The translations under genes and the position numbers were made by a program. Shown piece by piece: positions 1,126-44,371 of a stretch of 64,000 nt of DNA (position 1 is its first letter; each line of letters starts with the position of its first letter). The notes beneath the pieces were generated by a model that searched no databases, was not told the origin of the DNA, and worked only from the letters and a program-made list of their open reading frames with translations. This stretch comes from Acidimicrobiales bacterium (GTDB taxonomy: Bacteria > Actinomycetota > Acidimicrobiia > Acidimicrobiales > SZUA-35). The stretch covers positions 4,896,673 through 4,960,672 of the forward strand of contig OZ244195.1 in NCBI GenBank assembly GCA_965216685.1, given 5' to 3'.

Positions 1126-1145
1126 AGCAGATCCTCCACCATAGT

Positions 1146-1164: not shown

Positions 1165-1196
1165 TCCCATCGGGCCGAACAAGATACGATGAATCC

Positions 1197-1673: not shown

Positions 1674-1677
1674 AACC

Positions 1678-2658
1678 ATCGCTTCTGAGGATCACGACGA
1701 GACCCACGGCCGTAAGGGAAAGGGCGATCACAGCCACAGCCACCATGGCCACAGTCACGGCCCGAGCCTGCGGGCCGGGGCCCGTCACCTGGGTCGGCTG
1801 AAGATCGCCTTCGCCGTCATCGCCCTGTTCTTTGCGGTGGAGGCGGTGGCCGGCTGGTTGACCAACTCGTTGGCCCTGCTGTCCGACGCCGGCCACATGC
1901 TGACCGACGTCGTTGGCCTGGGTATGGCCCTGGCCGCCATCACCCTGGCCAACCGATTCGAACAGAACACCGACCGTGGCACCAGCCACACCTTCGGGCT
2001 GTACCGACTCGAGATCCTGGCCGCCTTCGTCAACGCCCTCTTGCTGTTCGCAGTGGCCATTTGGGTCCTGGTGGAGGCGGCCGGCCGGCTGCGTTCCGGC
2101 CCCGAGGTTCTTGATGGCCCGATGCTGGTGGTGGCCGCCCTCGGCCTGGTGGCCAATCTGGTGGCCTTCGCCCTGCTGCGGGAAGGGGCCAAGGAGTCAA
2201 TCAACCTGGAGGGGGCCTACTTGGAGGTTCTGGCCGACACCGTCGGCTCGGTTGGCGTCATCGTCGCCGCCCTGTTGATTCGCTTCTTCGGTTGGGGCTG
2301 GGCCGACCCTCTTATCGCCGCTCTTATCGGGCTCTGGATCCTGCCCCGGACCTGGCGCCTGGGTCGCAACGCGGTGCGTATCCTGTTGCAGGCCGCTCCC
2401 GAACACATCAGCCTGGAACGTCTCCGCCACGATCTGGGGTCCATACAGGGCGTGCTCGACGTGCACGACTTGCACGTGTGGACCCTGACCTCGGAGATGG
2501 ATGCGGCATCGGCCCATCTGAAGACCACCGATGACAGCGATCTCCATGGTGTCCTCGATGAAGCCAGAGACCTCCTGGCCGACACCTACGGCATCGATCA
2601 CGCCACCCTGCAGGTGGAGCCGGAAAGCCACGTCGGCTGCGAACAGGTCAGCTGGTAG
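1678..2658 (+). CDS. Cation diffusion facilitator (CzcD/ZitB-type) Zn/Co/Cd efflux transporter. The 5' end is unresolved.
   Basis: His-rich N-terminus HDETHGRKGKGDHSHSHHGHSHG. TM1-TM2 motif SLALLSDAGHMLTDV. TM5 LEVLADTVGS. C-terminal domain VHDLHVWTL...ASAHL. There is no ATG/GTG/TTG in frame between the zur stop and TM1, so coordinate 1678 (ATC) is a placeholder. Confidence 0.8.
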   Translation: MASEDHDETHGRKGKGDHSHSHHGHSHGPSLRAGARHLGRLKIAFAVIALFFAVEAVAGWLTNSLALLSDAGHMLTDVVGLGMALAAITLANRFEQNTDRGTSHTFGLYRLEILAAFVNALLLFAVAIWVLVEAAGRLRSGPEVLDGPMLVVAALGLVANLVAFALLREGAKESINLEGAYLEVLADTVGSVGVIVAALLIRFFGWGWADPLIAALIGLWILPRTWRLGRNAVRILLQAAPEHISLERLRHDLGSIQGVLDVHDLHVWTLTSEMDAASAHLKTTDDSDLHGVLDEARDLLADTYGIDHATLQVEPESHVGCEQVSW

Positions 2659-2727: not shown

Positions 2728-3626
2728 GAGATCTGGTGGTTGAGCCATGACCGGTGGAAGAAGGCCAGCTTCTCGGGGTTCAGAATGGCGTAGGACGCCG
2801 TCACCTTGCCGTCGACCCAGTTGGTGGTCACCAGCATGAACGGCTGACCGTGGTTGGTGGTGTACATGGCCGACTGGCCGTTGGCCTGCACGGCGTGGAA
2901 CTCCATGGTCGGTTCCCAACGGGTGGCCAGTTTGATGAACAGCCGGGCCACCCGGTTGGCGCCGACGATCGGTACCCGGGCCGCCCGCCTATCAGCCCCA
3001 CCGTCCGACAGATGCACGATGTCGTCGGCCAGGAACGATTCCAGCGCTTCGACGTCGCCGCTCATGGTGGCGGCCAGCATCAGTTGGGTCAGCCGCTCGA
3101 TGTCGGCCGGATCGGCGGTGAACCGGGGCCGACCGTCGGCGATGTGGTCCCGGGCCCGTTTGGCCAGCTGGCGGACGGCGGCCGGGGTCCGATCGATGAT
3201 TTCGGCCACCTCGGCCAGCGGGTAGCCGAACACGTCGTGCAGGAGGAACACCGCTCGCTCCAGCGGTGACACCCGTTCCAGGACGGCCAGGAAGCCCAGT
3301 GACAGCGACTCGGCCAGGATGGCGGCATCGTCGGGCCCTTCGGCCAGTGACGGTTCGCCCTCGATGGGCCCGGGCAGCCACGGACCGACATAGGTCTCCC
3401 GCCGGCGGCGGGCCGACCGGAGCCGGTCGATCGACATCCTGGTGACCACCGTTGTCAGCCAGGCCGCCGGGTTCTCGATAACCGTCGGCTGAGCAGCCGA
3501 GAAACGGATCCAGGCCTCCTGCACGATGTCGTCGGCATCGTCCGGCGTCCCCAACATCCGGTAGGCGATGGCCCGCAGCCGGGGCCGCTCGGCCTCGAAC
3601 GTCACAGTGGCCGGGGTGGGATCCAT
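2721..3626 (-). CDS. ECF sigma factor of the SigJ/ECF41 type, with a C-terminal SnoaL/NTF2-like extension.
   Basis: Region 2 is DDIVQEAWIRF and region 4 is ERAVFLLHDVFGYPLAEVAEIIDRTPAAVRQLAKRAR, followed by a roughly 110-aa NTF2-like tail. ATG 3626 lies 1 nt after the stop of the upstream oxidoreductase. Confidence 0.85.
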   Translation of the reverse strand: MDPTPATVTFEAERPRLRAIAYRMLGTPDDADDIVQEAWIRFSAAQPTVIENPAAWLTTVVTRMSIDRLRSARRRRETYVGPWLPGPIEGEPSLAEGPDDAAILAESLSLGFLAVLERVSPLERAVFLLHDVFGYPLAEVAEIIDRTPAAVRQLAKRARDHIADGRPRFTADPADIERLTQLMLAATMSGDVEALESFLADDIVHLSDGGADRRAARVPIVGANRVARLFIKLATRWEPTMEFHAVQANGQSAMYTTNHGQPFMLVTTNWVDGKVTASYAILNPEKLAFFHRSWLNHQISQ

Positions 3627-3627
3627 G

Positions 3628-4842
3628 TCACACCCCGACCCGACCAGCGAGGTGGGCCAAGGCGGCCTGGGCCGCCATCGAGGCGCTGGCCACGGCGGCG
3701 TCGGCCAGATGACCGATCGGTCCCACCCAATCCCCGGCCAGGAAGACGTTGTCATGCCCGCTGTCGGTCACCAGCGGTCGACCGGCCATTCCCCCGCCGG
3801 CCGCGGTGGGTTGGGCCGATACCGGTGTCATCCGGTGCAGCGAGCGTGACATGATCACATCGTCGTCACCAACACCGGCATGACGGGCGAAGGCGGCCAG
3901 GGCGCCGGTATCGGGCTCGTCTCCCTCGCCCAGATACTGCAGCACTGCGCCGTGATGGCGATCCGGTGGGGCCAGCTCGGCTGCAGCCGAATGATTCGAG
4001 AAGTAGAACGGCACGTCACCTCCGAGGACAAAATCATGGCCCGGACGGCGCCGCAATCCCAGATCGAGGCAACTGGCTTGTGCCGGTGGACCGACGTCGA
4101 AGCGGCGGCCCAACAGCGCCTCGGCCGTCCGGGGACCACCAGCGGCGATGACCACGGCCCGGGCATCGGGCAAGGCCGCCACCGGTGTGCCGGCCCGAAC
4201 CTGGACCCCAGCCATGGCGGCCAGCTGGTCGATCAAGGTCTGCCAGCCGCGGTGCAGGTAGATGACTCCTTGGCCCAGCGCCCTCTGCATCTGCGATACG
4301 GCCACGTCGGCACTCATTTGATCAGGATGGCTGGAGTAGGTGGTCAGTCGGACAAGGGCCATGATCATGGTCGCCGCCCGTTCGTCGGTCACCGAGTCGG
4401 CCACCCAGTCGCTCACCGTGAGGTCGGCATACTCCCAGGCTTTGAGCTTGGGTAGCCGAGCCAGGTTGCGGGCTATCTCGATCTTGGCCCGGCCACCCAG
4501 CGCCCTGGTTTGCAGCAGACTGCTCGGTCCGGCCGGGGCGACATGGGTCTGACCGTCGAAGACAATGCGTCCCTTGATCGGCGGCCGTCCTCCATCGATC
4601 TTCACCCCCAGCTCCCGGAGGATATTGTCGGCCGGTCCACCCCGGTAGAGGGCGTGAGGCCCCTGGTTGAGGGTGAAGCCGTCCTTCTCGGTGCTCCGGG
4701 CGTCACCTCCCGGTACACCCAGTTTCTCGTGGACCACCACCGATCGGCCGGCCAGGGCCACGGTGGCCGCCGCGGTCAGACCGGCCAGCCCGCCGCCGAC
4801 GATCACCACATCAGGATCCGACATGTTCGTGTTCTCGCTCAT
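3628..4842 (-). CDS. NAD(P)/FAD-dependent oxidoreductase (phytoene-desaturase/amine-oxidase superfamily).
   Basis: Dinucleotide fold DVVIVGGGLAGLTAAATVALAGRSVVVHEKLGVPGG. C-terminal FLAGDW motif. Start is ambiguous (4887, 4842 or 4824); third-position GC is low upstream of 4842. Confidence 0.75.
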   Translation of the reverse strand: MSENTNMSDPDVVIVGGGLAGLTAAATVALAGRSVVVHEKLGVPGGDARSTEKDGFTLNQGPHALYRGGPADNILRELGVKIDGGRPPIKGRIVFDGQTHVAPAGPSSLLQTRALGGRAKIEIARNLARLPKLKAWEYADLTVSDWVADSVTDERAATMIMALVRLTTYSSHPDQMSADVAVSQMQRALGQGVIYLHRGWQTLIDQLAAMAGVQVRAGTPVAALPDARAVVIAAGGPRTAEALLGRRFDVGPPAQASCLDLGLRRRPGHDFVLGGDVPFYFSNHSAAAELAPPDRHHGAVLQYLGEGDEPDTGALAAFARHAGVGDDDVIMSRSLHRMTPVSAQPTAAGGGMAGRPLVTDSGHDNVFLAGDWVGPIGHLADAAVASASMAAQAALAHLAGRVGV

Positions 4843-4896
4843 GGTTGATCGACGAGACAGCCCGGCCCGATGTGACATCGATTTCATGGGCCGCAG

Positions 4897-6042
4897 TCAG
4901 GCTTCCAGCTGAGCCTTGAGGGACTCGACGGCCTCGATGAACTCGGTCACCATGTCGAACACCACCTGAGCCGACGTCTTGCGTTGGTTCATAGTGCCGA
5001 CGATCTGGCCCACGAAGTAGTTGGCCAGCTTCTCCGCCCCCGAACCTTCGGAGTGGGCGGCCCGGGCTATTCGTCGCTGGGCCCGGGCGGTCAGGACGGG
5101 CTGCATCGGCATGCCCAGCGGGTCGGGGGTGTCGTTCCGTTCCCACTCATCGGTCCAAGCTGAGCGCAACATTCGGGCGTGTTTGCCGGTCAACGACCGG
5201 GAGCGGATGGTGTCGGCCGATGTGGCGGCCAGGAACTTGTCCTTGACCACCGGGTGGGTTTCGGCCTCGTCGGTGGTCAGCCACACCGACCCGCACCACA
5301 CGCCTTCAGCCCCCAACGCCATGGCCGCCGCCATCTGACGGCCCCGGCCGATGCCCCCGGCCCCCAGAACCGGGATGTCGACGGCATCCACGATCTCCGG
5401 GATCAACACCATCGAGCCGATCTCGCCCGTGTGGCCGCCGGCCTCATAGCCCTGGGCGATGATCAGGTCGACGCCGGCGTTCTGGTGGCGCTCGGCGTGC
5501 GACGGTCGACCGGCCAGAGCGCCCACCAACCGGCCTTCGGCCTGGCAGCGGTCGATCAGGAACTGGGGCGGCGGACCCAGGGCGTTGGCCACGAACACCG
5601 TGTTGTGGGCCAGGGCGATGTCGAGCTGGGGGCCGGCGGCATTGGCCGAGAACGGGGCGTCGGCCCCCGATCCGGAAATCTCGGTGTTGGCTCGAACCGT
5701 TTCGTCGTCGGGTAAATCGGGGACGTCGTAGCGGGCCAGGATGTCGTCAACGAATTCGGCGTGCTCGGCCGGGATCAACCTCCGGATGTCGTCCATGGTG
5801 AACCCGCCGTCGCCGTCGCCAGCGTACTTGGCCGGGACGATGAGGTCGACCCCGTAGGGCCGATCGCCGATCTGGTCCTCAATCCAGGCCAGGTCGGTTT
5901 CCAGATCCTCCGGTGTGTGGGCTACCGCCCCCAGGACGCCCATCCCTCCGGCCTTGGTCACGGCGGCCACCACGTCCCGGCAGTGGCTGAAGGCCAGGAT
6001 GGGAAACTCGATGTCGAACAGCTCGGTGACGGCTGTTTTCAT
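4897..6042 (-). CDS. Nitronate monooxygenase / NPD-family FMN oxidoreductase.
   Basis: FPILAFSHCRD, GGMGVLGA, IIAQGYEAGGHTG, PVLGAGGIGRGRQMAAAMALGAEGVWCGS. GAGGAG RBS 6 nt upstream of the ATG. Confidence 0.85.
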   Translation of the reverse strand: MKTAVTELFDIEFPILAFSHCRDVVAAVTKAGGMGVLGAVAHTPEDLETDLAWIEDQIGDRPYGVDLIVPAKYAGDGDGGFTMDDIRRLIPAEHAEFVDDILARYDVPDLPDDETVRANTEISGSGADAPFSANAAGPQLDIALAHNTVFVANALGPPPQFLIDRCQAEGRLVGALAGRPSHAERHQNAGVDLIIAQGYEAGGHTGEIGSMVLIPEIVDAVDIPVLGAGGIGRGRQMAAAMALGAEGVWCGSVWLTTDEAETHPVVKDKFLAATSADTIRSRSLTGKHARMLRSAWTDEWERNDTPDPLGMPMQPVLTARAQRRIARAAHSEGSGAEKLANYFVGQIVGTMNQRKTSAQVVFDMVTEFIEAVESLKAQLEA

Positions 6043-6044
6043 GA

Positions 6045-7316
6045 CTACTCCTCGTTGTTGCGACCGTGTCGGTAGGCGGTCTGGGTTTCGACCCAGCTCA
6101 GGCCCCGCTGAACGTCGGGCTCCCGAGGAAGCCCGAGAACCTGTTCGGCCACGATGTTGCGCTGAATGGCCCAGGTCCCGCCCCCCAGGGTGAGGGCCGG
6201 CGACACCAGGTAGCCATAGTGCCAGATGGGATCGACGTCCGGGAACTGGCTGTCGGCGCCCCGACCGAAGTTGATCTCGGTGATGCCGTTGCGCTCAGCG
6301 GCCGGCACCGCGCCGGCCGGGCCCGAACCCTCCAGCATCCCGTCGGCTCCCTGCAGATCTTTGGCCAGCTCCATCACCTCCTGGCCGTGTTCGTCGGCCA
6401 TCAGCTTCTGGATCGAGGCCTCGGCTCCCGGGGTCCGACCCTGGAGTTTGGCGCTCAGGGTGCGCAGCCGGTTGAGCCGCAGGACCTCGGCGTTGCAGTG
6501 CAGTCGGGCCAGTCGCTGCCTCACCATCGGATCGCTGATCGGGTCACCGTCGCGCACCAGGTCGAGCAGAGTGTGGGCCGATGGTCCCTCGCCCCACAGC
6601 GAACCGGCGGCCGACAACGACACCCGCTCGTTGGACAACGTCACCTTGGCCAACCGCCAACCCTCACCCTCGGCCCCTATCCGGTGGGACTCGTGGAGGC
6701 GAACGTCGTCGAAGAACACCTGGTTGAAGGAGTGAGCGGTGGCCATGTCGGTAATGGGCGACAGCGTGATGCCCGGGGTGTCCATGGGGCATACGAAGTA
6801 GGAGATCCCCCGGTGTTTGGGCGCTTGGGGGTCGGTGCGGGCGATCAGGATTCCCATCTGGGACCGGTGGGCTCCGCTCGACCAGATCTTGGAACCGTTG
6901 ATCACGTACTCATCGCCGTCTCGCTCGGCTCGAGTTGCGAGGTTGGCCAGGTCGGAACCGGCGTCGGGTTCGGAGAACAGCTGGCACCAGATCTCCTCGT
7001 GATTGAAGATCTTGGGAAGATAGCGCTGCTTCTGTTCCTCGGTTCCGGCCGCCAGGATGGTGGGGGCGGCCCAGCCGATGCCGATGGCGTTGCTGGCCGA
7101 GGCGTGATCGGGTCGTTCGATTGTCAGGTCGGCCAGCTCCTGGGCGATGATCACCTGGTGCACCGGGTCGGCGTTGAGGCCCCACGGTTCGGGCCAGTGG
7201 GGCACCACATAGCCGGCGTCGGCCAGGTCCTGTTGCGTTGGTTCGGGGTGGGCGGCCCGCCAGCGTCGCACCGCCAGCCGGCGAGGGTCGTCGTCGGGCG
7301 GGAAGTCGAAGTCCAT
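6045..7316 (-). CDS. Acyl-CoA dehydrogenase (AtuD/LiuA-like position).
   Basis: ORF 6045..7523 trimmed to MDFDFPPDDD. Motifs: IWCQLFSEPDAGSDLANLATRAERDGDEYVINGSKIWSSGA and C-terminal GGGTWAIQRNIVAE. Confidence 0.85.
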   Translation of the reverse strand: MDFDFPPDDDPRRLAVRRWRAAHPEPTQQDLADAGYVVPHWPEPWGLNADPVHQVIIAQELADLTIERPDHASASNAIGIGWAAPTILAAGTEEQKQRYLPKIFNHEEIWCQLFSEPDAGSDLANLATRAERDGDEYVINGSKIWSSGAHRSQMGILIARTDPQAPKHRGISYFVCPMDTPGITLSPITDMATAHSFNQVFFDDVRLHESHRIGAEGEGWRLAKVTLSNERVSLSAAGSLWGEGPSAHTLLDLVRDGDPISDPMVRQRLARLHCNAEVLRLNRLRTLSAKLQGRTPGAEASIQKLMADEHGQEVMELAKDLQGADGMLEGSGPAGAVPAAERNGITEINFGRGADSQFPDVDPIWHYGYLVSPALTLGGGTWAIQRNIVAEQVLGLPREPDVQRGLSWVETQTAYRHGRNNEE

Positions 7317-7326
7317 GATCGTCGGG

Positions 7327-8115
7327 TTATCCTTTCTGCCCGCCACGGTCGACCGTCCACGACGGCGGTCGTTTCTCCAGATAGGCCGCCATTCCCTCGG
7401 CTGCTTCGGTCCTGGCGAACAGTTGGCCCGACAGTTCGCTCGTCCACCGGAAGGCCTCGTCGACCGCCATGGTGGGTACCCGGGCCAGAAGCTGCTTGGC
7501 TGCCGCCAGCGCATTGGGCCCACCGGCCAGGAGATCGCCGACCACCTCGTCGACGGCCGGGTCGAGTTCGGCGGCCGGGACGGCCCGGTTGATCAGGCCG
7601 ATCCTGGCTGCTTCCGACGCCGGGAAACGGCGACCCCGCAGGATGGCGTCGGCTGCGTCGGCCGCCTGCATCTTGGGCAGGCAGAGCACCGAGATCATGG
7701 CCGGTGCCACCCCGACGCGGACTTCGGTGAAGCCCATCTTCACGTCGTCGACCGCCACCGAGATGTCCATGGCGGCGGCCAGCCCCATCCCGCCGGCCAC
7801 GCAGTGACCGGCGATGCGACCGACGAACGGCTTGGCCGACTGGGCGAAGCGGCTGAAGAGGCGGACGGCTGCTGTGTTGTCGATCGACGATGCCCCGGAT
7901 CTGCTGCTGGAGCGATGGCTCAGGTCGGCCCCGGCGCAGAACACCCGACCCCGGTTGGTCAACACCACCACCCGTACCGTGTCGTCGGCCTCGGCGCCGT
8001 CGATGGCGGCGTTCAGCTGTTCGACCAGCTCGGCGCTCAGGGCGTTGCGCCGCTCCTGATCGACGAGGGTGATGGTGCAGACACCGCCTTCGACCGCCGA
8101 CTCGACGCAGTTCAT
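7327..8115 (-). CDS. Enoyl-CoA hydratase/isomerase (crotonase; AtuE/LiuC-like position).
   Basis: ITLVDQERRNAL, VVVLTNRGRVFCAGADL, GHCVAGGMGLAAAMD. Confidence 0.85.
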   Translation of the reverse strand: MNCVESAVEGGVCTITLVDQERRNALSAELVEQLNAAIDGAEADDTVRVVVLTNRGRVFCAGADLSHRSSSRSGASSIDNTAAVRLFSRFAQSAKPFVGRIAGHCVAGGMGLAAAMDISVAVDDVKMGFTEVRVGVAPAMISVLCLPKMQAADAADAILRGRRFPASEAARIGLINRAVPAAELDPAVDEVVGDLLAGGPNALAAAKQLLARVPTMAVDEAFRWTSELSGQLFARTEAAEGMAAYLEKRPPSWTVDRGGQKG

Positions 8116-8768
8116 GGTGCTCTCCTCAGTCCGTCCAGTACGAGGTCGACCATGGCGTTGGCGCTGCGGGCCGGTGAGTGGTCCAGGCGACCAAGCACCT
8201 CAGGCCGGGCGAAATCCCGCCCCAGTCCACCCAGCATCCGGGCCAGAGCCGCGGTGTCGACCGGTCGACCGATCTCGCCCAGCTCGACGGCCCGATCGAG
8301 CAGGGCTCTGGTCACGTCGATCAGATAGTTGCTGTGGGCCTCGTTGAGGGCCACACCTTCGTCGATGGCCGCCATGTCGGCGGCGAACTCCGGAGTCACC
8401 CGGCTGACTGCGTTGTTGGCGGCATGCAGGTAGGCCCCGATGGCTTGAAGCGCCGTCATCTCGTCGGTCACCGCGCTGTGGGCCGCCCGGCCGTGGTCGC
8501 GTAGTACCCGGTCGATGACCATGACCACCATCTGGTTGCGGCCGGCGGCCAGGGTGTAGAGGGTGCGGAGCGAGCAGTTGAGACGAGCGGCCAGGTCGGC
8601 CATCGTCATGTCGATGAACCCGGCGACGGCCAACAGGCGGGCCAGCTCATCGAGAAGTTCCCGCTGGCGGGCGGTCAACTCGGCCTCCCGCTGTCGGGAC
8701 AACACCGGGCGGGGCGGCGCCACGGCCTTCATCACGTCGATGACCGAGCTGGCGGTCGAGGCCTTCAC
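8112..8768 (-). CDS. TetR-family transcriptional regulator embedded in the operon (AtuR-like position).
   Basis: HTH MADLAARLNCSLRTLYTLAAGRNQ. GTGA overlap with the upstream gene and ATGA overlap with the downstream gene. Confidence 0.8.
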   Translation of the reverse strand: MKASTASSVIDVMKAVAPPRPVLSRQREAELTARQRELLDELARLLAVAGFIDMTMADLAARLNCSLRTLYTLAAGRNQMVVMVIDRVLRDHGRAAHSAVTDEMTALQAIGAYLHAANNAVSRVTPEFAADMAAIDEGVALNEAHSNYLIDVTRALLDRAVELGEIGRPVDTAALARMLGGLGRDFARPEVLGRLDHSPARSANAMVDLVLDGLRRAP

Positions 8769-30119: not shown

Positions 30120-31655
30120 TCAGCGCAGTTCGACACCGTGCTCGGCCAGTGATGGACCAAAGGTATCGTCGGCCAGCATGAGTTCGGCCGCCGCCAACTC
30201 CGGGGCCAGGTAGCGGTCGGGGCCGGGGCCCTCGACCTGGGTCCGCAACTCGGCGATTACGGCCGAGATGGCCGGCGACGATACCAGCGGGGCCCGGAGG
30301 TCGATGGCCCGGGCTCCGACCACCATCTCGACGGCCTGGATCCGTCGCAGGTTGTCGATCACCCGACGCAACTTGCGGACGGCACCCCAAGCCATGGAGA
30401 CGTGATCCTCCTGGAGAGCCGAGGTGGGGAGGGAATCAACCGAGGCTGGAGCGGCCAGCCGACGATTTTCGGCCACCATCGAGGCCGCGGTGTAGTGACC
30501 GATCATGAGACCGCTGTCGACCCCGACCTCGGAGGCCAGGAACGGCGCCAGCCCGTGGCTCCGGTTGTGGTCGAGGAGACGATCGAGACGGCGTTCGGCG
30601 ATGGCCCCGACCTCGGCCAGGGCGATGGCCAGGAAGTCGGCGGCGAAGCCCAGCGGGGCGCCGTGAAAGTTGCCGCACGATTCCACCCGACCATCAGGTA
30701 ACACCATCGGGTTGTCGATGGCGGCCGCCAATTCGTTCTCGGCCACCGTGCGGGCATGGGCCACCGTGTCGCGGGCGGCACCGTGCACTGCCGGGGTGCA
30801 GCGAATGCTGTAGGCGTCCTGCACTCGAGGATCGTCGACCTGGTGGCTGGCCAGGATCTGTGACCCGGACAGCAGCGCCCGCAGATTGGCTGCGCTGTAG
30901 ACCTGGCCCGGTTGGGGGCGCAGCGCCTGAAGATCGTGGGCGAAGGCCCGGTCGGTGGCCAGCAGGCCATCCACCGTCATGGCCGCCGCCAGGTCGGCGG
31001 TGGCGAGCAATCGCTGGGCGTCGTGAACGGCCAGGCAGAGCATGCCCAGGATGCCGTCGGTTCCGTTGATGAGGGCCAAGCCCTCCTTCTCCACCAGATC
31101 GACCGGCCGCAGTCCGGCGTCGGCCAGGGCATCGGCGGCCGGCCGCTGCCGTCCTTCGTGCTCGACTTCACCCTCTCCCAACAGCGCCAAGGCGGCATGG
31201 GCCAAGGGGGCCAGATCGCCGCTGGCCCCCAGACTACCGTACTCCGGCACCACGGGAACGATTCCGGCGTTGAGCAGATCGACGAAAGCCTGGGCCAGCC
31301 GGGGCCGGGTACCGCTGTGACCCATCGTCAGGGTGCGGGCCCTGAGCAGCATCATGGCCCGTACCGCCTCCTCCTCAATGGCCGGACCCATGCCGGCGGC
31401 GTGGGAGCGAATCAGCGCCAACTGCAGGGCTCGGCGACGGTCCGATGGAATGGCGACGGTGGCCAAGGCCCCGAACCCGGTCGAGATACCGTACTTCGGT
31501 TCACCGTCGGCCAGCCGTTCCACGATGGCCCGGGAGGCGGCCATCCGCTCCACGGCGGCCGGCGAGATGGTAACCGGGGCTTGACTGCGAGCCACGGCGA
31601 CAACATCGTCGATGGTGGTGTCGGGCCCGTCAAGTGTCACGGCAGTCGATGTCAC
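30120..31655 (-). CDS. hutH: Histidine ammonia-lyase.
   Basis: MIO-forming GSLGASGDLAPLAH. Other motifs: YGISTGFG and NFHGAPL. GTG start at 31655. Confidence 0.9.
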   Translation of the reverse strand: MTSTAVTLDGPDTTIDDVVAVARSQAPVTISPAAVERMAASRAIVERLADGEPKYGISTGFGALATVAIPSDRRRALQLALIRSHAAGMGPAIEEEAVRAMMLLRARTLTMGHSGTRPRLAQAFVDLLNAGIVPVVPEYGSLGASGDLAPLAHAALALLGEGEVEHEGRQRPAADALADAGLRPVDLVEKEGLALINGTDGILGMLCLAVHDAQRLLATADLAAAMTVDGLLATDRAFAHDLQALRPQPGQVYSAANLRALLSGSQILASHQVDDPRVQDAYSIRCTPAVHGAARDTVAHARTVAENELAAAIDNPMVLPDGRVESCGNFHGAPLGFAADFLAIALAEVGAIAERRLDRLLDHNRSHGLAPFLASEVGVDSGLMIGHYTAASMVAENRRLAAPASVDSLPTSALQEDHVSMAWGAVRKLRRVIDNLRRIQAVEMVVGARAIDLRAPLVSSPAISAVIAELRTQVEGPGPDRYLAPELAAAELMLADDTFGPSLAEHGVELR

Positions 31656-31690
31656 GTTGTGGCCTCACTCATGTCACTCATGTCGCTCAT
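31652..31690 (-). CDS. 12-codon bridging mini-ORF (MSDMSDMSEATT) built on a 3 x 9-bp tandem repeat.
   Basis: Its ATG overlaps the iclR stop (ATGA) and its TGA overlaps the hutH GTG (GTGA). GGAGG lies 7 nt upstream. Whether it is translated is unproven. Confidence 0.3.
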   Translation of the reverse strand: MSDMSDMSEATT

Positions 31691-32376
31691 GTCTCTGCCT
31701 CCTGGGCCCTACCCAGATCGACTGCCATCCGGGCGACTGTAGCGTCGAGGATGTTCTCGATGATCGTCGTTGTCGCCTCGTCCATACGGTGGGCGGGCCC
31801 GATCACCGAAAGTGCGACTTCGAACGGCAGATCTACCAGTGCTGCCCTCGAGACTGCGGTGATGTCGGGTTCAATGGCGCCGGTGCGGACGGCGCAACCG
31901 GTGGGGTCGGCCAGGGCAGCTCCCACCGCAGTGCCGTCGAGGGGCACCGTCTGACCAACCCAGCCGACATGGCGAATGGCCCGCCGACTCTCGGCCGTGG
32001 CCACGTAGGTCGCCACCCGGCCGTCCGACACCACAAGGTAGACAGACTCTCCAGTCGACTCGGCCAGCTCGGACAACAGGGGCTGGGCGATGGCCTTGAG
32101 CCGTTCCATCGGTGCCGCGCCACTGAAACCGGCCGCCAGTCGCCAGATGGTGGGCCCGGCCCGGTAGGCGCTGTCGGCCCCCCGGCTCAGGTAGCCGCGG
32201 GCCTCGAGGGCCCGCAGATGGCGCAGGGCGGTTGACGGATTCAATCCCGCTCGCTCCGCCGCCCCGGTCAGATTGCACCGGCCCTCGGCCAGCACGACTT
32301 CCAGGAGGTCAAGGACCCGGCCGACCGACCGGGGCACTGCAGCGGCCGGACCAGTGTTGGCATCGGCGTTGGTCAT
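31687..32376 (-). CDS. IclR-family transcriptional regulator.
   Basis: HTH RVLDLLEVVLAEGRCNLTGAAERAGLNPSTALRHLRALEARGYL. C-terminal effector domain present. Confidence 0.85.
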   Translation of the reverse strand: MTNADANTGPAAAVPRSVGRVLDLLEVVLAEGRCNLTGAAERAGLNPSTALRHLRALEARGYLSRGADSAYRAGPTIWRLAAGFSGAAPMERLKAIAQPLLSELAESTGESVYLVVSDGRVATYVATAESRRAIRHVGWVGQTVPLDGTAVGAALADPTGCAVRTGAIEPDITAVSRAALVDLPFEVALSVIGPAHRMDEATTTIIENILDATVARMAVDLGRAQEAET

Positions 32377-32390
32377 GAAACGCGCATCCC

Positions 32391-32486
32391 CATCCTTCGT
32401 CGGCTCATCCTTCGCTCAATTTCATCCCAGTTTCATCTCGGTTTCATCTGCTGAAAACATGTTCCGACTGTTGACAATCTAGTCGG
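32391..32486. promoter_or_regulatory. hut divergent control region with direct and inverted repeats.
   Basis: CATCCTTCG occurs twice (32391, 32406). TTTCATC occurs three times with 11-bp phasing (32420, 32431, 32442). CCGACT-N11-AGTCGG (32464..32486) encloses TTGACA. Confidence 0.5.
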
Positions 32487-32548
32487 GCAGCGAACACACT
32501 GCAAGAGACGCTCAATGCCCACTTCACCATCGAAAGGTGGCCTATTCC

Positions 32549-34225
32549 ATGGCTGATATCGGCACACCGGTGACCAACATCCGTGCCCCCCGGGGACCGT
32601 CCCTGACCTGCCGGTCGTGGTCAACCGAGGCCCCCTACCGGATGCTGCAGAACAACCTTGATCCCGAGGTGGCCGAGAATCCGGATCAGCTGGTGGTCTA
32701 CGGCGGCACCGGACGGGCCGCCCGCTCCTGGGACGCCTACCGGACCATGTTGACCACACTGGAGTCGCTGGCCGAGGACGAAACGATGTTGGTGCAGTCG
32801 GGCAAGCCGGTCGGGGTTCTCCGAACTCACGAATGGGCCCCCAGGGTGCTCATCGCCAACTCCAACCTGGTGCCGGACTGGGCCGACTGGGATGAATTCC
32901 GTCGCCTGGAACACCAGGGCCTGACCATGTACGGCCAAATGACGGCCGGATCCTGGATCTATATCGGAACCCAGGGCATCCTACAGGGAACCTACGAGTG
33001 CTTCGCCGAGATCGCCCGTACCCGGTTCGGTGGGAGCCTGGCCGGAACCCTGACCATTACCGCCGGTGCCGGCGGCATGGGCGGGGCCCAACCGCTGGCC
33101 GTGACCATGAACGACGGAGTGGTCCTCATCGTCGATGTCGACCCCCACATGTTGAACCGGCGCGTCGAGCACCGCTACCTCGACGAGGTCGCCCCCGACT
33201 ATGCCTCGGCGGTGGCCCGTGTGAGCGAGGCCAAGTCGGCCCGCCGGCCGCTTTCGGTCGGCCTGGTGGGCAACGCGGCGGAGATCCTGCCCCGTCTGCT
33301 GGCCGACGGCGTCGAGGCCGACATCGTCACCGACCAGACCAGCGCTCACGATCCCCTGTCGTACCTGCCCCAGGATCTGACCCTGGAGGCGGCCGAGACG
33401 CTCCGCCGGGACGACCCCGGCGAGTTCACCCGCCGAGCCCGGGCGGCCATGGCCACCCACTGCGCGGCCATGGTCGGGTTCATGGACGCCGGCGCCGAGG
33501 TGTTCGACTACGGAAACAGCCTGCGAGCCGAGGCCAAACTGGGTGGCTTCGACCGGGCCTTCGACTACCCCGGCTTCCTCCCCGCCTACATCCGTCCCCT
33601 GTTCTGCGAAGGCAAGGGCCCGTTCCGCTGGGTTGCCCTGTCCGGCGATCCGGCCGACATCGCCGCCACCGACCAGGCGGTGCTGGAGGAGTTCCCCGAA
33701 GACGACGCGCTGGCCCGCTGGATCACCATGGCCTCGGAGCGGGTGGCCTTCCAAGGGCTGCCGGCTCGGATCTGCTGGCTGGGCTACGGTGAACGGCATC
33801 GACTGGGACTGCGCTTCAACGAGATGGTGAAATCAGGTCAGCTGAAGGCCCCGGTGGTGATCGGCCGGGACCACCTCGACTCGGGATCGGTGGCCTCGCC
33901 CTACCGGGAAACCGAGGCCATGGCCGACGGCTCCGACGCCATCGCCGACTGGCCGTTGTTGAACGGGCTGGTCAACACCTGCTCCGGAGCCACCTGGGTC
34001 AGCCTCCATCATGGTGGCGGCGTCGGTATCGGCCGCTCGATTCACGCCGGTCAGGTGTCGCTGGCCGATGGAACCGATCTGGCCGCCCAAAAGCTGGAAC
34101 GGGTGTTGACCAACGATCCGGCCACTGGGGTGATCCGCCACGTCGACGCCGGCTATCCCCGGGCTAGCCAGGTGGCGAACGAGCGGGGTGTCGTGGTGCC
34201 CATGACCGACGGCCAAGGAGCCTGA
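32549..34225 (+). CDS. hutU: Urocanate hydratase.
   Basis: [60 protein letters not shown] precedes ATG 32549. Confidence 0.9.
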
Positions 34226-34227
34226 CG

Positions 34228-34800
34228 ATGGCGGTACAGGAGATCCTCCAGATCGGGCACCCGGTCCTCCGCCAACCGGCTTCGGCCGTCGACCGGGCTG
34301 ACATAGGCGGCCGCCGGATCCAAGGTTTGATCGACGACCTCATCGACACTATGCATCACGCTAACGGAGCCGGATTGGCCGCACCCCAGATCGGTGTCGG
34401 ATTGCGGGTGGCGGTTATGGAGGTGACCGACAACCCCCGCTACCCCTACAAGCCACCCATCCCGTTGACCGTGGCCATCAACCCGGTCATCACTCCGCTC
34501 GACGACGAAATGGTCGAGATCAACGAGGGATGCTTGTCGGTTCCATTGCGGGGCAACGTCATGCGCCACGTCAACATCGCCGTCAACTACCTGGATCGGG
34601 CCGGTACCGAACAGCAGGCCACGTTGCGGGGTCTGACCGCCGGAACCTGGCAGCACGAGTGCGATCATCTCGATGGTCTCCTGTTCGTCGACCGGGTGGC
34701 CGACACCACGACGTTGACCACCTGGGACGAATTCGAGGCCCATCACCGCGACGCATTTGTCGAACGCATCACCGCCTTCGTCGAGCGCGTCGGATCCTGA
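34228..34800 (+). CDS. def: Peptide deformylase homologue located inside the hut operon.
   Basis: All three PDF motifs are present: GAGLAAPQIG, EGCLSVP and QHECDHLDG. The ATG lies 2 nt after the hutU stop, and the hutF GTG lies 4 nt after its stop. Confidence 0.8.
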   Translation: MAVQEILQIGHPVLRQPASAVDRADIGGRRIQGLIDDLIDTMHHANGAGLAAPQIGVGLRVAVMEVTDNPRYPYKPPIPLTVAINPVITPLDDEMVEINEGCLSVPLRGNVMRHVNIAVNYLDRAGTEQQATLRGLTAGTWQHECDHLDGLLFVDRVADTTTLTTWDEFEAHHRDAFVERITAFVERVGS

Positions 34801-34804
34801 ACCG

Positions 34805-36157
34805 GTGAAGATCTGGTGCGAGCTGGCCCTGGTCGACGGCCGGGTTCAGCCCGGCGTTCAGCTCACGATTGACGGTGGCCGCTATGGGGCTGTCGATGTA
34901 GCGGCCGCCCCTCATGGGGCCGACGAGCGCCGCTCCGGGCTCAGTCTTCCCGGTTTGGCCAACGGTCACAGCCATGCCTTCCACCGGGCTCTTCGGGGAC
35001 ACACTCAGGCCGACCAGGGATCATTCTGGACCTGGCGAAACCTGATGTACCGGGTTGCCGAGCGGCTCGATCCCGACCGCTACCGGCGCCTGGCCCGGGC
35101 CGTCTACGGCGAAATGGCATGCGCCGGGATCAGTGCCGTCGGCGAGTTCCACTACCTGCACCACTCCCCCACCGGTGCTCCCTACAACGACCCCAATGCC
35201 ATGGGCGATGCCTTGATCGAAGCGGCAGCCGAGGCCGGCATCCGATTGACATTACTCGACACCCTCTACCAACACGGCGGCCTCGGCCCCGACGGCTACC
35301 AGCTTCCGGAGGGAGTGCAGCAGCGGTACCGCGACGCCTCGACCGACCATTGGCTGAGCCGGATCGATGGCCGGCAGCCGGCCGACCATGTCCGGTTCGG
35401 GGCCGCGGTGCATTCCGTCCGAGCCGTCGATCCCCACGGTTTGGCCGTGGCCGCCGATTGGGCTCGCCGCCGGGGCGCCCCGTTGCACGCCCATGTTTCC
35501 GAACAGCCGGCCGAGAACGACGCCTGCCAGGCTCACCATGACATGACCCCCAGTTCCCTTCTGGAATCGGCCGGCACACTCGACACGATGTTCACCGCCG
35601 TGCACGCCACCCATTTGACCGAAGACGATATCGAGCTGTTGGGGCGAAGCCGGTCGACGGTCTGCTTCTGCCCGACCACCGAACGCGATCTGGGCGACGG
35701 CATCGGACCCAGTTCCCGGCTGATCGAGGCCGGGGCGCCGTTGTCACTGGGGACCGACTCCCACGCCGTGATCGACATGCTGGAGGAGGCCCGCCTGGTC
35801 GAGCTGCACCAACGGCTGAGCCGCGGTCGGCGGGGGATCCACGGCACGGAGGAGCTGGTGGTAATGGCCACCGTCAACGGGCACCGGTCCCTCGGTTGGA
35901 CCGACGCCGGCGAACTGATCCCCGGAGCTCGGGCCGACCTGGTTACCATCGATCTCACCACTGTCCGGACGGCCGGAGCAGTGAGAGGCGACAACCACGA
36001 CGGCGCGCTGGCCTCCGCCGTCTTCGCCTCCGGAACGGCCGACATCACCGACGTCATGATCGATGGTGTGACCGTGGTATCCGATCGGCGCCATCGATCC
36101 ATCGACGTCGCCCACGAACTCCAGGCCGCCATGACCGAACTCCTCCACCATGACTGA
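34805..36157 (+). CDS. hutF: Formimidoylglutamate deiminase.
   Basis: [64 protein letters not shown]. This matches my memory of the Pseudomonas HutF pattern. Confidence 0.85.
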
Positions 36158-37337
36158 CACCAACAACCAAACAGGCGGCAACTCCGAGTCGATTGTCATC
36201 GACAGTATCGGGCTGTTGATCACCAATGATCCGGAGCTGGGCAACGGGCCGCTCGGGCGTTTGACCGATGCCGCCGTCGTCATCACCGGCGGGGTGGTTG
36301 AAGCGGTGACATCGGCGGGGGCGGCCGGCGATCGTCGTATCGACGCCCACGGTTCATGTGTCATTCCCGGTTTCGTCGACTCCCACAGCCATCTGGTCTT
36401 CGCCGGGGATCGGGCCGATGAATTCGCCGCCCGTATGGCCGGGCAGGATTATGACGGCGGCGGGATCAGGGTCACCACCGAGGCCACCCGGCAAGCCTCA
36501 ACCGACGAACTCGACCGGCTGGTACGGGAACGGCTGCGACGGGCCCGGCTGAGCGGCACCACCACCATGGAGATCAAATCGGGCTACGGACTCAACGTGG
36601 TCGACGAGAAACGTGCGTTGCAAGTGGCCGAAGCCCTCACCGGCGAAACCACGTTCCTCGGCGCCCACCTCGTTCCCCCCGAATACCTGGGACGCCCCGA
36701 CGACTACATCGACCTGGTCTGCGGCGAGATGCTGGCCGCCGCCGCCCCCCACGCCCGCTGGATCGACGCCTTCTGCGAGACCGGGGCCTTCGATGTCGAG
36801 CAGTGCCGTCGGGTTCTGGAAGCGGGCCGCCAGGCCGGCCTGGGGCTTCGGCTCCACGGCAACCAGCTGGGACACGGGCCGGGCGTGCAGCTGGCGGTGG
36901 AGATGGGTTGCGCGTCGGTCGATCACTGTACCTACCTGACCGACGACGACATCGACGCCCTGGCCGGCTCGAACACGGTGGCCACCCTGCTCCCGGCCAC
37001 CGACTTCTCCACCCGACAGCCCTATCCCGACGCCCGCCGACTGCTCGATGCCGGCGCAACGGTGGCCATTGCCGCCAACTGCAACCCCGGCTCCAGCTAC
37101 ACCACGTCCATCCCCTTCTGTCTGGCCCTGGCCGTGCGGGACATGAACATGACCTCCGACCAGGCGTTGCAGGCGGCAACCCTCGGCGGCGCCGCCGCCC
37201 TCGGCCGCACCGATATCGGTCGCCTCACCCCCGGTGCGAAGGGGCACGCCGTCATCCTCGACGCCCCATCCCACCACCACTTCGCCTACCAGCCGGGACA
37301 GAACCTCATCCGGCAGACCGTTGGACCATGGGATTGA
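36150..37337 (+). CDS. hutI: Imidazolonepropionase.
   Basis: [40 protein letters not shown]. 8-nt overlap with hutF. Confidence 0.9.
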
Positions 37338-37448
37338 GCGGCCCGACTGGGCCGTCAAGTCATGGCGGCGTGCATCCACCGGCCGATCGCTGACGTTAGG
37401 TTGTCTGTGGTGACTTCTACAGCAACGTCCAACGATCCAACCGAACCG

Positions 37449-38219
37449 ATGCTCGACGTCGACGACGGAGTCTTTCGCCGTCTGCGCAACCTGAACATCG
37501 GTGCGGCCGTACTTCACTTGGTGTCGGGGATCGCCATGGTGGTGCTGGGTAACGACTTCTCGCTACCCGTCTCATTGTTCAACCTGGGTGGTCCGCCCGG
37601 CACCCCGCTCAGCGAAGGTTTCCTCGAGGAGCTCTGGCAGTTTCCGCTGGCCATCGGCACGGCCGGCTTCATGTTCCTGTCGGCGCTGTTCCACCTGATC
37701 GTGGTGGCTCCCGGGGGCTACGACATCTACCAGCGCGAGATCCGTCGCGGTCGGAACCGGTTCCGTTGGGTGGAATACTCGCTGTCCTCCACCCTGATGA
37801 TCGTACTCATCGCCCTGATCGTCGGCATCACCGACATCGCCGCCCTGATCGGCATATCGGTGGCCAACGTGGCCATGATCCTGTTCGGTTGGGTCATGGA
37901 GATCGTCAACCGTCCCGGCGATCGGGTCTGGTGGTCCCCGTTCTGGTTCGGCTGTATCGCCGGCATCGCCCCCTGGCTCGCCCTGGTGGCCTATCTGACA
38001 CTGTCGAGTAGCGGCGAGGGCCCTCCGGGCTTCGTCTACGGCATCCTGGTGAGCATCTTCGTGCTGTTCAACTGCTTCGCCGTCAACCAGTGGCTGCAGT
38101 ACCGGGGAGTAGGCCGCTGGGCCGACTATGTCTTCGGGGAACGGGTCTACATCATCTTGAGCTTCGTGGCCAAGAGCGCCCTGGCCTGGCAGATCTTCGC
38201 CAACACTCTGATCGACTAA
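37449..38219 (+). CDS. Heliorhodopsin (7-TM retinal protein, inverted topology family).
   Basis: Full-length resemblance to heliorhodopsins as I recall them: NIGAAVLHL (His23), SALFHLIV (His82), FRWVEYSLSS (counterion Glu109, nt 37773-37775), ILFGW, PFWFGCIAGIAPW, PGFVYGI, and SFVAKSALAWQIF (Schiff-base Lys242, nt 38172-38174). Alternative GTG starts lie at 37407/37410. Confidence 0.9.
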   Translation: MLDVDDGVFRRLRNLNIGAAVLHLVSGIAMVVLGNDFSLPVSLFNLGGPPGTPLSEGFLEELWQFPLAIGTAGFMFLSALFHLIVVAPGGYDIYQREIRRGRNRFRWVEYSLSSTLMIVLIALIVGITDIAALIGISVANVAMILFGWVMEIVNRPGDRVWWSPFWFGCIAGIAPWLALVAYLTLSSSGEGPPGFVYGILVSIFVLFNCFAVNQWLQYRGVGRWADYVFGERVYIILSFVAKSALAWQIFANTLID

Positions 38220-38451: not shown

Positions 38452-39591
38452 ATGCCTTCTGTTCCTCTTCCCGAGAACCCATCGATCGAGCACCTCAAGA
38501 AGCAGGCCAAGCTCGTGCAGGAACTGGTGCGGGCCGCCGACGACGGGGCCTTGAACATGGTCCGGGAGTTCCACCCCACCCTGTCCGACGCCGATCCTGC
38601 CTCGCCCGAGATCAGCGGCTTCAGCCGGACCAACGCCCAACTGGTGGTGGCCCGGCTGTACGGGTTCGCCAGCTGGGTCAAGCTTCGAGCCCACGTCCAG
38701 CTCATCCAGGACCACAGCCTGCCCGACCCGGCCGACGAGGGCCCCGATGACGGAGTCACTCAGCCGCCGGTCGACCGGTTCGTGTCACTGGCCTGTGTCA
38801 GCTACAACCCGGTTGACGTTCACCGCCGGCTGAGTGACGCCACGGCCATGCTGGCCGCCGATCCGGCGTTGTCAGGAGCATCGGCCGCGGCCATGGCCAC
38901 CACCGGCGACCATCGACGACTCAACGAGCTCCTGGCCACCGACCCCGAGCTGGCCCGGCGGCCGACCGGTCCCAACCGGTGGCCCCTCATCCTGTACTGC
39001 TGCTATTCCCGGGTGGGGGCCCACGGCCAGGAGCACTCGGCAGTGGCCACCGCCCGGCTCCTGCTCGACCGGGGAGCCGACCCCAACACCGGTTTCCTGT
39101 GGCACGGCCTGGTGCCGCCGTTCACCGCGTTGACCGGTGCCTTCGGTCGGGGTGAGGGCGACCAGCCCCGGCATCCCCAGTGGCAGGAGCTGGCCCGCCT
39201 GCTACTGGAGGCCGGGGCGGATCCCAACGACGGCCAAGCGCTGTACAACAACGGCCTGGCGGGAACAGCCCACGACGATCCAAGCCACCTTCAACTGCTG
39301 CACGAGTTCGGACTCGGCCAGGATCAGGACGGGCCGTGGTATCGACAGTTCGGCCAACGGCTGACCCCGGCGCAGGAGTTGCTGTATGACGAACTCGAGG
39401 TTGCCGCCTGGCGGAATCTACCCAACCGCATGCGATTCCTGGTCGGATTGGGGTTGGACCTCAACCGAGGAGTTGGGCGCTCAGGGCAGGCACCCCTCGA
39501 TATCGCCCTGGGGGCCGGCCACGAGGAGGTGGTGGACATCCTTCGCTCAGCCGGTGCCGCCGGAGAAACAGGCGCTACAGCTGGCGGCTGA
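38452..39591 (+). CDS. Ankyrin-repeat protein with a conserved N-terminal helical domain.
   Basis: N-terminus PSIEHLKKQAKLVQELVRA. C-terminal repeats are LLLDRGADPNTG, LLLEAGADPNDG and LDIALGAGHEEVVDILRSAGA. GAAAGGGG RBS. Confidence 0.7.
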   Translation: MPSVPLPENPSIEHLKKQAKLVQELVRAADDGALNMVREFHPTLSDADPASPEISGFSRTNAQLVVARLYGFASWVKLRAHVQLIQDHSLPDPADEGPDDGVTQPPVDRFVSLACVSYNPVDVHRRLSDATAMLAADPALSGASAAAMATTGDHRRLNELLATDPELARRPTGPNRWPLILYCCYSRVGAHGQEHSAVATARLLLDRGADPNTGFLWHGLVPPFTALTGAFGRGEGDQPRHPQWQELARLLLEAGADPNDGQALYNNGLAGTAHDDPSHLQLLHEFGLGQDQDGPWYRQFGQRLTPAQELLYDELEVAAWRNLPNRMRFLVGLGLDLNRGVGRSGQAPLDIALGAGHEEVVDILRSAGAAGETGATAGG

Positions 39592-43693: not shown

Positions 43694-44371
43694 CTAGCAC
43701 ACCGAGGCCGCTGAGCTCATCGTCGGTCTGGTGTGCAGATCGCCCAGCCAGGCGACCCAACTGATGGTCGGTTGTGTGTCAGTGGTTGTGGCGTGCTCCA
43801 CGTTGGCCGGGTGGACGAACACCTCCCCGGGATTGCGGGGTCGGTAGCCTGCATCGCCCCGCAGCCACCATCCGGTGCCGGCCACGATGCCGTAGACCTC
43901 CGTGGCCGGATGATGGTGCCGGTCGTAGGCCACCCCGGCGCCCTGCACCACGAGGAACAGGGCCAAATGGTCGGATCGACACGGGCTCAACTGGTGGCTG
44001 CCGTCTTCGGGGGCGACCACTGCCGCATAGCTGTAGTTCGACCAGAACCGCTCCAAGACCGGCGTCGGAGTCAGATCGGCGTAGGCGGTGTTCCATCGCA
44101 GGGTGGACGCGCACTCGGCAAACGTCCGGGCAAAGTCGCCGGCTTCCGGCGGAGCAACGGCCAGCGCTTCGTCCAACCACCGCTCGACCGCCGGATGGGA
44201 CAGCGCCCGCACCGGTTGGGTGTAGGCCACACCGGGCAGCGACACCGCCAACTGCTCAAGGACCGGTCCATCCCCAGCTTCGGCCATTCCAAGGGCCCGT
44301 TCCACTGAGGCGCCGACGTGGGTGAGCAGGCGGCCGATGCTCGTCTCCTGATCGGACCTGCGTCCATCCAT
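43694..44371 (-). CDS. Cupin-domain protein. Membership of the DddL-like DMSP-lyase family is possible but unverified.
   Basis: Cupin metal motifs are YDRHHHPATEVYGIVAG and VFVHPANVEH, with an N-terminal roughly 130-aa helical region. The family call comes from memory of the DddL cupin pattern only. Confidence 0.45.
   Translation of the reverse strand: MDGRRSDQETSIGRLLTHVGASVERALGMAEAGDGPVLEQLAVSLPGVAYTQPVRALSHPAVERWLDEALAVAPPEAGDFARTFAECASTLRWNTAYADLTPTPVLERFWSNYSYAAVVAPEDGSHQLSPCRSDHLALFLVVQGAGVAYDRHHHPATEVYGIVAGTGWWLRGDAGYRPRNPGEVFVHPANVEHATTTDTQPTISWVAWLGDLHTRPTMSSAASVC

Follow-up and report, generated by a model that had tools for sequence, protein, structure and literature searches.

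In the HutF route of histidine catabolism, HutF converts N-formimidoyl-L-glutamate to N-formyl-L-glutamate and ammonia, and the hut-encoded HutG of the Pseudomonas type (EC 3.5.1.68, PF05013) then takes N-formylglutamate as its substrate. Other pathways finish from formiminoglutamate in one step and bypass N-formylglutamate, using either the arginase-family HutG formiminoglutamase (EC 3.5.3.8) or glutamate formiminotransferase. A further candidate for the post-HutF position is an M20 (ArgE/DapE-like) deacylase, which SEED lists as "N-formylglutamate deformylase, alternative form" (COG0624). Here we describe a hut operon in a 64,000-nucleotide stretch of Acidimicrobiales DNA (contig OZ244195.1, positions 4,896,673 to 4,960,672; called the window below), in which a gene of the peptide deformylase (PDF) family, def, lies directly before hutF. 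The product of this gene is probably an N-formylglutamate deformylase with the PDF fold, which would supply the last enzyme of the HutF route.

Peptide deformylases carry out the chemistry that is predicted here, namely metal-dependent hydrolysis of an N-formyl amide. The PDF of Leptospira interrogans (PDF1A-like, EC 3.5.1.88; structures 1SV2, 1Y6H and 1ZXZ) has the same fold and the same three catalytic motifs as the window protein, and the two also have in common an enlarged CD loop with Arg-Tyr-Pro and the motif QHECDHLDG. Unlike the Leptospira case, however, the window gene is located in a hut operon and not beside fmt, and it has relatives that are fused to HutF. The window protein further differs from canonical PDFs in an Ala/Gly/Thr pocket, in Tyr74-Lys75, in an Asn at position 99 just before EGCLS and in an extra helix (residues 166-188), and its predicted substrate is a free N-formyl amino acid rather than a peptide.

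The predicted reaction and the position after HutF are those of HutG, but the fold and family are unrelated, and no PF05013 match was found in the scanned open reading frames (ORFs) of the window or in the related loci examined. Judged by its sequence, the window protein is not a HutG homologue and would be a functional analogue at most. It likewise differs in fold and family from the M20 deacylase, whose pairs and fusions with HutF mirror those of def and hutF; the M20 analogy is itself unproven. Because a strong HutF equivalog is present, the window cluster can be assigned to the two-step deiminase route and not to either of the one-step finishes.

A PDF-family gene within the hut operon

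The genes for HutH and an IclR-family regulator are divergent from hutU-def-hutF-hutI (Table 1). All four hut enzymes (HutH, HutU, HutI and HutF) score above their NCBIfam equivalog cutoffs and are encoded in one regulated cluster, which identifies a HutF-type five-step Hut operon. The def ORF starts with ATG and encodes 190 amino acids plus a stop codon. It is packed tightly between its neighbors: the hutU TGA ends at 34225, 2 nt before the def ATG at 34228, and the def stop codon ends at 34800, 4 nt before the hutF GTG at 34805 (the hutF profile alignment starts at about 34808). The hutI gene in turn overlaps the hutF stop by 8 nt. A preliminary description of this DNA, made from the letters alone, had recognized the same four-enzyme cluster and had placed a 190-aa PDF homologue between hutU and hutF at just these spacings; the profile scores and the coordinates agree with it on both counts.

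The same description had claimed that the cluster lacks a HutG/FGase-type gene and that fmt is not next to def, and these statements hold as well. Profile scans of 40 window ORFs, with some small ORFs outside the scan, gave no match to FGase (PF05013) or M20 (PF01546). With E. coli Def and Fmt and M. tuberculosis Def as tblastn queries, neither the 64-kb window nor any of 80 related genome loci showed an fmt or a def other than the central one. Pairing with fmt or another translation context, which would mark a housekeeping PDF gene, is replaced by a position between hutU and hutF, with a single ambiguous exception (locus L160, see below).

Conserved linkage to hutF in Acidimicrobiia

Relatives of the window gene were collected from a set with one genome per species, in a scan that relies on exact peptide patterns. 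The scan returned 222 loci with relatives, and the best 80 of these 222, with 68-85% identity, were examined. Their labels are nearly all Acidimicrobiia or families within that class, the proteins nearest to the window PDF carry the names Acidimicrobiia, Ilumatobacter and Ilumatobacteraceae, and the recovered loci come from marine, soil and sponge-associated samples.

The neighboring hut genes were located by tblastn with the Hut proteins of the window. In 72 of the 76 loci with enough downstream sequence to be informative, hutF lies directly downstream of def, and the two genes are adjacent in 66 of the 68 loci that extend for 1.5 kb or more to either side. Most often the layout is that of the window, with hutH and iclR divergent from hutU-def-hutF-hutI; hutH is beside the cluster in most relatives, and iclR is found between hutH and hutU in most of the 80 loci. 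Beyond the cluster the flanks are variable, no family recurring more than 7 times among 100 neighbor proteins from about 30 loci. Since these outer flanks differ between genomes, the conserved unit consists of the hut genes plus def. FGase and M20 were absent from the recurrent families of the same 100 neighbors, a listing that leaves singleton families outside. Two loci (L035 and L106) have a def-hutF pair with no visible hutU, hutI or hutH, and in L035 this pair is all that is kept, amid unrelated polysaccharide genes.

About 25 of the 80 loci have an extra gene of 0.8-1.6 kb between hutU and def. It was considered as a hidden HutG and rejected, since these genes encode PhyH, HalD-like 2-oxoglutarate (2OG)-Fe(II) or Rieske/VanA-like oxygenases and not FGase. 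Such oxygenase genes, which lie mostly between hutU and def, also occur in a locus from a distant lineage (L105), and modified histidines may become substrates of the pathway through them. In L033, L051 and L055 the oxygenase insert is replaced by a second HutH-like lyase, 32% identical.

Gene orders and phylogeny of the wider subfamily

Conservation within a single class could reflect inherited synteny, and the search was therefore widened to a full HMMER search of 1.84 billion representative proteins and a metagenome scan with a subfamily alignment. The subfamily that contains the window protein is marked by NPRYPYKP in the CD loop and by A-G-T-x-QHE before motif 3. In the metagenomes, 34 of 80 subfamily loci are hut-linked, in at least five arrangements: hutH-hutU-def-hutF-hutI; hutD-hutU-hutF-def-hutI-x-hutH; hutF-hutH-def-hutU, from a distant lineage with a HutF that shares only 35% identity with that of the window; hutF-def; and hutI-def. 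Because the same subfamily occurs in several hut gene orders, simple inherited synteny is ruled out. No FGase or M20 gene was seen in the hut-linked metagenome clusters.

A neighbor-joining tree places the window protein in a large clade, and all members of this clade for which the gene context can be read are linked to hut genes. Outside this clade, the subfamily includes genes with no hut linkage. One group has a high GC content and consists of solo def genes with variable neighbors such as greA, methyltransferases and kinases. It was considered as the housekeeping def of Acidimicrobiia, an assignment that was rejected when the source names proved to be Myxococcota (Polyangiaceae, Kofleriaceae). 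The other group has a low GC content (38-41%) and lies in a conserved block with a class-I glutamine amidotransferase, an ammonium transporter and, in L151, a pyridoxal phosphate (PLP)-dependent decarboxylase. This block of amidotransferase, decarboxylase and transporter genes suggests that the low-GC PDFs have another role in nitrogen metabolism.

Def-HutF fusion proteins

The wider search also returned proteins in which the two neighbors are joined. Most of the long "fusion" representatives are frameshift read-throughs of adjacent def and hutF genes on high-GC contigs and were discarded; only compositionally normal, repeatedly observed proteins were counted. Protein P0165 (659 aa) is compositionally normal; it begins with a PDF domain and ends with a HutF domain, and one member of its 90% cluster occurs on 13 contigs from three sources. 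A search with P0165 gave at least 15 further clusters of the same architecture, 640-736 aa long. Among them are EukProt entries of two choanoflagellates (Stephanoeca diplocostata and Acanthoeca spectabilis) and a transcript of the chrysophyte Paraphysomonas from MMETSP.

Fusions are also found on eukaryote-like marine metagenomic scaffolds as a single ORF of about 2 kb, and an uninterrupted fusion ORF of 2007 bp is present in three independent assemblies. The neighboring genes on these scaffolds are widely spaced and encode EF-hand, ankyrin/leucine-rich repeat, Oscp1, Na/Ca-exchanger and ABC-transporter proteins, a eukaryotic setting. The fusions contain PDF and HutF domains only. Their HutF part matches NF006681 with 377 and 369.5 bits (cutoff 362), their PDF part passes NF001159, and 15-16 of the 16 fusion domains preserve the PDF catalytic residues, one sequence having an alignment gap at motif 1. 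The fused PDF domains form the sister clade of the bacterial subfamily. Judging from these sequences, the hut-linked branch appears to span the range from Acidimicrobiia to the choanoflagellate and chrysophyte Def-HutF proteins.

A parallel with M20 deacylases

A second kind of hydrolase shows similar associations. HutF of oomycetes (Phytophthora, Pythium, Lagenidium and Globisporangium) continues at its C-terminus into an ArgE/DapE-like M20 deacylase, in fusion proteins of 830-861 aa. Two loci from bacteria, L171 and L172, have an M20 gene immediately upstream of hutF with a 4-nt overlap, and the two genes form an isolated module away from other hut genes; one of these loci belongs to a metagenome-assembled genome labeled Acidobacteria. 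With the oomycete M20 domain as tblastn query, no match was found in 165 loci. The slot next to HutF is therefore occupied, depending on the lineage, by an N-acyl-amino-acid hydrolase of either the PDF or the M20 type, and each type also occurs fused to HutF; this is the pattern expected of two analogous enzymes that act on the HutF product. The oomycete fusions and the two bacterial modules revive the idea of an M20 "alternative N-formylglutamate deformylase", which was reported as invalidated for a Streptomyces avermitilis protein (PMC3223725).

Sequence and predicted structure of the window protein

The sole Pfam match of the window protein is PF01327 (Pep_deformylase), over profile positions 2-153 of 156, and the protein also passes the NCBIfam peptide deformylase cutoffs (NF001159, 159 bits with a cutoff of 125; TIGR00079, 115.9 with a cutoff of 103.95). 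The motifs GAGLAAPQIG (residues 47-56), EGCLSVP (100-106) and QHECDHLDG (142-150) are present exactly as the preliminary description had quoted them, and their cores GAGLAAPQ, EGCLS and HECDH correspond to the family motifs G-x-G-[LI]-A-A-x-Q, E-G-C-L-S and H-E-x-x-H. Metal-binding and catalytic residues are invariant in all 74 hut-linked orthologues (74/74).

An AlphaFold2 model of the protein (predicted local distance difference test score, pLDDT, 94.9; predicted template modeling score, pTM, 0.91) has the alpha+beta fold of PDFs. Its best Foldseek matches are the Leptospira structures 1SV2 and 1Y6H, with TM scores of 0.86-0.95 and a root-mean-square deviation (rmsd) of 1.1-2.1 A (42% identity at 1.1 A), followed by the second PDFs of Burkholderia and Pseudomonas and then Arabidopsis PDF1A. 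No member of the NPRYPYKP/AGT subfamily was found among solved structures. The model has an extra long C-terminal helix (residues 166-188), which is acidic to neutral.

Two residues of E. coli PDF, Ile44 and Ile128, shape the hydrophobic S1' pocket for Met (PMC3101196). When the window protein was compared with the PDFs of E. coli and Leptospira and with the eleven nearest representatives from outside the subfamily, Ile44 proved to be replaced by Ala48, Ile128 by Gly139 and Cys129 by Thr140 (E. coli numbering first). Every hut-linked and fused member has Tyr74-Lys75 in the mobile CD loop, a pair that the nearest other PDFs lack. A larger and more polar pocket together with a loop lysine would suit a dicarboxylate substrate. 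Four residues (Y74, K75, G139 and T140) looked diagnostic when set against the nearest other PDFs, but the metagenome scan showed the same residues in non-hut clades, and they were rejected as proof of altered specificity. Since pocket and loop residues are common to members with no hut linkage, sequence alone does not prove a change in specificity. At position 99, Asn is found in 105 of 108 hut-linked members, and the non-linked bacterial members have Tyr or Phe.

Proposed function and alternatives

There is very good support for a functional coupling between this PDF subfamily and HutF. The role of N-formylglutamate deformylase is the most economical reading of the coupling, because the product of HutF is an N-formyl amino acid and the chemistry of PDFs is N-formyl hydrolysis. 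According to this model, a PDF-fold metallohydrolase would have been recruited into histidine catabolism, taking the place of the unrelated FGase-type HutG. The def gene would be transcribed and translated with hutU, hutF and hutI from a regulated promoter upstream of hutU. HutF would produce N-formyl-L-glutamate and ammonia from N-formimidoyl-L-glutamate, and the PDF homologue would hydrolyze the N-formyl group to yield formate and L-glutamate (EC 3.5.1.68). Catalysis would use the standard PDF machinery, with the metal held by Cys102, His143 and His147 and with the participation of Glu144 and Gln54. Translation would presumably be served by a separate housekeeping PDF. Non-orthologous replacement of HutG by a PDF-family protein had been put forward in the preliminary description, and it gains support from the adjacency in 72 of 76 loci, the multiple gene orders, the lone def-hutF pairs, the fusions and the M20 parallel.

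With somewhat less assurance, we favor a broader proposal in which the NPRYPYKP / A-G-T-x-QHE subfamily as a whole consists of small-molecule N-formyl-amino-acid deformylases, its hut-linked branch being a third, previously unrecognized and non-homologous N-formylglutamate deformylase.

Several observations weigh against a deformylase that is specific for N-formylglutamate. The YK/AGT signature is also found in the solo, non-hut Myxococcota clade and in the low-GC clade. Among bacterial members, Asn99 alone clearly sets the hut-linked proteins apart from the non-linked ones, and the residue is Ile or Val in the fusions; no gain of positive charge exclusive to HutF-associated members was found. 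The window protein is still a bona fide PDF by the NCBIfam cutoffs, and it is 42% identical (rmsd 1.1 A) to the Leptospira PDF, a characterized peptide deformylase according to literature cited in PMC3101196. Three or four close orthologues (L046, L064, L068) have no hut linkage. In addition, the M20 prediction has a single published test, and in it no deformylase activity was detected for the S. avermitilis protein (PMC3223725, Table 3, case 20; Gerdes et al.). That null result left the step without an assigned gene in actinobacteria, and it also shows that slot-based predictions of this kind can fail.

The remaining point of this sort is the metagenome contig L160, in which the 3' end of hutU is followed by a hut-type def, then a different C-terminal tail, and then a genuine fmt start (TRPDKPQGRGRK). 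Its DNA is 84% identical to that of hut-def loci as far as motif 3, where the sequence switches abruptly. The hutU-def-fmt arrangement may be real, which would favor a housekeeping role. Alternatively, two def paralogues may have been joined in a chimeric assembly, with the break precisely at motif 3, and in that case both paralogues would have to exist.

One alternative is that the gene encodes an ordinary housekeeping peptide deformylase, active on nascent fMet-peptides, that became lodged in a hut operon by chance and was inherited within the Acidimicrobiia. The intact motifs and the NCBIfam scores would be expected of such an enzyme, as would a fold nearly identical to that of Leptospira PDF; the sister clade with the same signature residues consists of solo genes, tblastn of the window and the 80 loci showed no second def, and L160 places fmt after a hut-type def. 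Nevertheless, this explanation is quite improbable. It accounts neither for the eukaryotic Def-HutF fusions nor for linkage maintained through at least five gene orders and in lone def-hutF pairs, and an essential translation factor would be odd inside a substrate-induced catabolic operon. Moreover, the exact-pattern scan found this type of PDF in only 222 species genomes, and so most of the class probably uses another PDF.

It is also unlikely that the enzyme is bifunctional, keeping peptide deformylase activity, perhaps as a back-up PDF, while also hydrolyzing N-formylglutamate. The modest divergence from characterized PDFs (42% identity) and the occurrence of the signature in non-hut clades are compatible with a dual role, and enlargement of the pocket (Ile44 to Ala, Ile128 to Gly) need not exclude Met. 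However, E. coli PDF has a basic C-terminal helix that binds the ribosome, whereas the helix at residues 166-188 is acidic to neutral, a difference that is not decisive, and co-translational activity at organellar ribosomes is improbable for the eukaryotic fusion proteins. Least probable, and by our estimate very doubtful, is a partnership with HutF on a different small molecule. This could be some other amino acid with an N-formyl or N-acyl group, or a formamide-type intermediate derived from modified histidines on which the oxygenases act. The oxygenase genes between hutU and def in about 25 of the 80 loci, and again in the distant L105, are in line with this idea, as is the inactivity of the S. 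avermitilis M20 homologue. The window cluster contains no such oxygenase, though, and the fusions have no domain besides PDF and HutF; the invariant partner is HutF, with N-formylglutamate as its known product.

Assignment of the gene as an N-formylglutamate deformylase would close a gap in the pathway, since these bacteria have no assigned gene for the final step of the HutF route. Because it passes the NCBIfam cutoffs, automatic pipelines will call the gene "peptide deformylase", and through this mislabel reconstructions of Acidimicrobiia would miss a complete histidine pathway and over-count translation genes. The PDF fold has been studied almost only as an antibiotic target that acts on nascent peptides, and its recruitment to metabolite chemistry would bear on inhibitor specificity and on the reading of PDF paralogues. 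To our knowledge, this would be the first PDF-fold enzyme assigned to primary catabolism. The Def-HutF and HutF-M20 fusions in eukaryotes would then make a clean case of analogous gene displacement. A literature search returned no paper in which a peptide deformylase is connected to formylglutamate or to hut genes.

Control region and transcription

The intergenic region between the regulator gene and hutU contains, at 32415-32505, three GTTTCATC direct repeats with a spacing of about 11 bp, together with a TTGACA...ACACTGCAAG block and the imperfect palindrome GTTTCA-N5-TGAAAAC. When the corresponding regions of 14 relatives were inspected, a TTGACA...ACTGCAAG block was found to recur upstream of hutU, together with an upstream palindrome of the form TGTCA-N5-TGACA or TTTCA-N5-TGAAA, the TGTCA-N5-TGACA form occurring in other clades. 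The block upstream of hutU looks like a promoter and operator. In several relatives the hutU ATG comes almost directly after ACTGCAAG, which suggests that their hutU transcript is leaderless or has a very short leader. No promoter-like or terminator-like site was found between hutU and hutI, where a scan of low power gave no signal above shuffled controls, and def is therefore likely to be co-transcribed with hutU, hutF and hutI.

Table 1. Positions of the hut genes and flanking features of the window, and of features in related loci and proteins
Sequence	Feature	Position	Strand	Evidence
Window	hutH, histidine ammonia-lyase (step 1)	30120..31655	-	TIGR01225 638.7 bits (cutoff 539); PF00221 E 9.5e-183
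Window	IclR-family transcriptional regulator, presumed hut regulator	31687..32376	-	PF09339 HTH_IclR + PF01614 IclR_C
Window	Divergent intergenic control region, putative	32377..32536	.	sequence read directly
Window	hutU, urocanate hydratase (step 2)	32537..34225	+	TIGR01228 889 bits (cutoff 375)
Window	PDF-family gene, proposed N-formylglutamate deformylase (step 5)	34228..34800	+	PF01327 E 2.9e-46
Window	hutF, formimidoylglutamate deiminase (step 4)	~34805..36157	+	NF006681 587.8 bits (cutoff 362); TIGR02022 451.9 (cutoff 413)
Window	hutI, imidazolonepropionase (step 3)	36150..37337	+	TIGR01224 366.6 bits (cutoff 298)
Window	Heliorhodopsin gene	37362..38219	+	PF18761 E 2.7e-97; NF038020 303 bits
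Window	379-aa ORF	38452..39591	+	PF00023 E 1.4e-7 (weak)
Window	Cupin ORF	43694..44371	-	PF16867 E 3.1e-18
L011	Oxygenase insert	7195..8004		
L048	Oxygenase inserts	6440..7192, 7189..8004		
L023	Oxygenase insert	6948..7991		
L105	Oxygenase genes	609..1436, 7083..7877		
L151	Low-GC clade block	2791..7965		
L155	Low-GC clade block	276..2422		
L156	Low-GC clade block	4664..8213		
L160	hutU 3' end, def, fmt start	1..1004		
L171	M20-hutF module	5856..8308		
L172	M20-hutF module	5835..8314		
P0335, P0347, P0371, P0384, P0390, P0425, P0429, P0431	Oomycete HutF-M20 fusions			

Genes downstream of the hut cluster

A heliorhodopsin gene starts 24 nt past the hutI stop on the same strand. The same adjacency is found in L004 (82% identity) but in none of the remaining 79 genome loci. 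A 379-aa ORF, flanked by the heliorhodopsin gene on one side and a 3-hydroxyacyl-CoA dehydrogenase/thiolase pair on the other, has only weak, C-terminal matches to ankyrin repeats and belongs to no NCBIfam family. Farther along, a cupin ORF matches the dimethylsulfoniopropionate (DMSP) lyase family, which would be consistent with a marine or aquatic lifestyle of the source organism.

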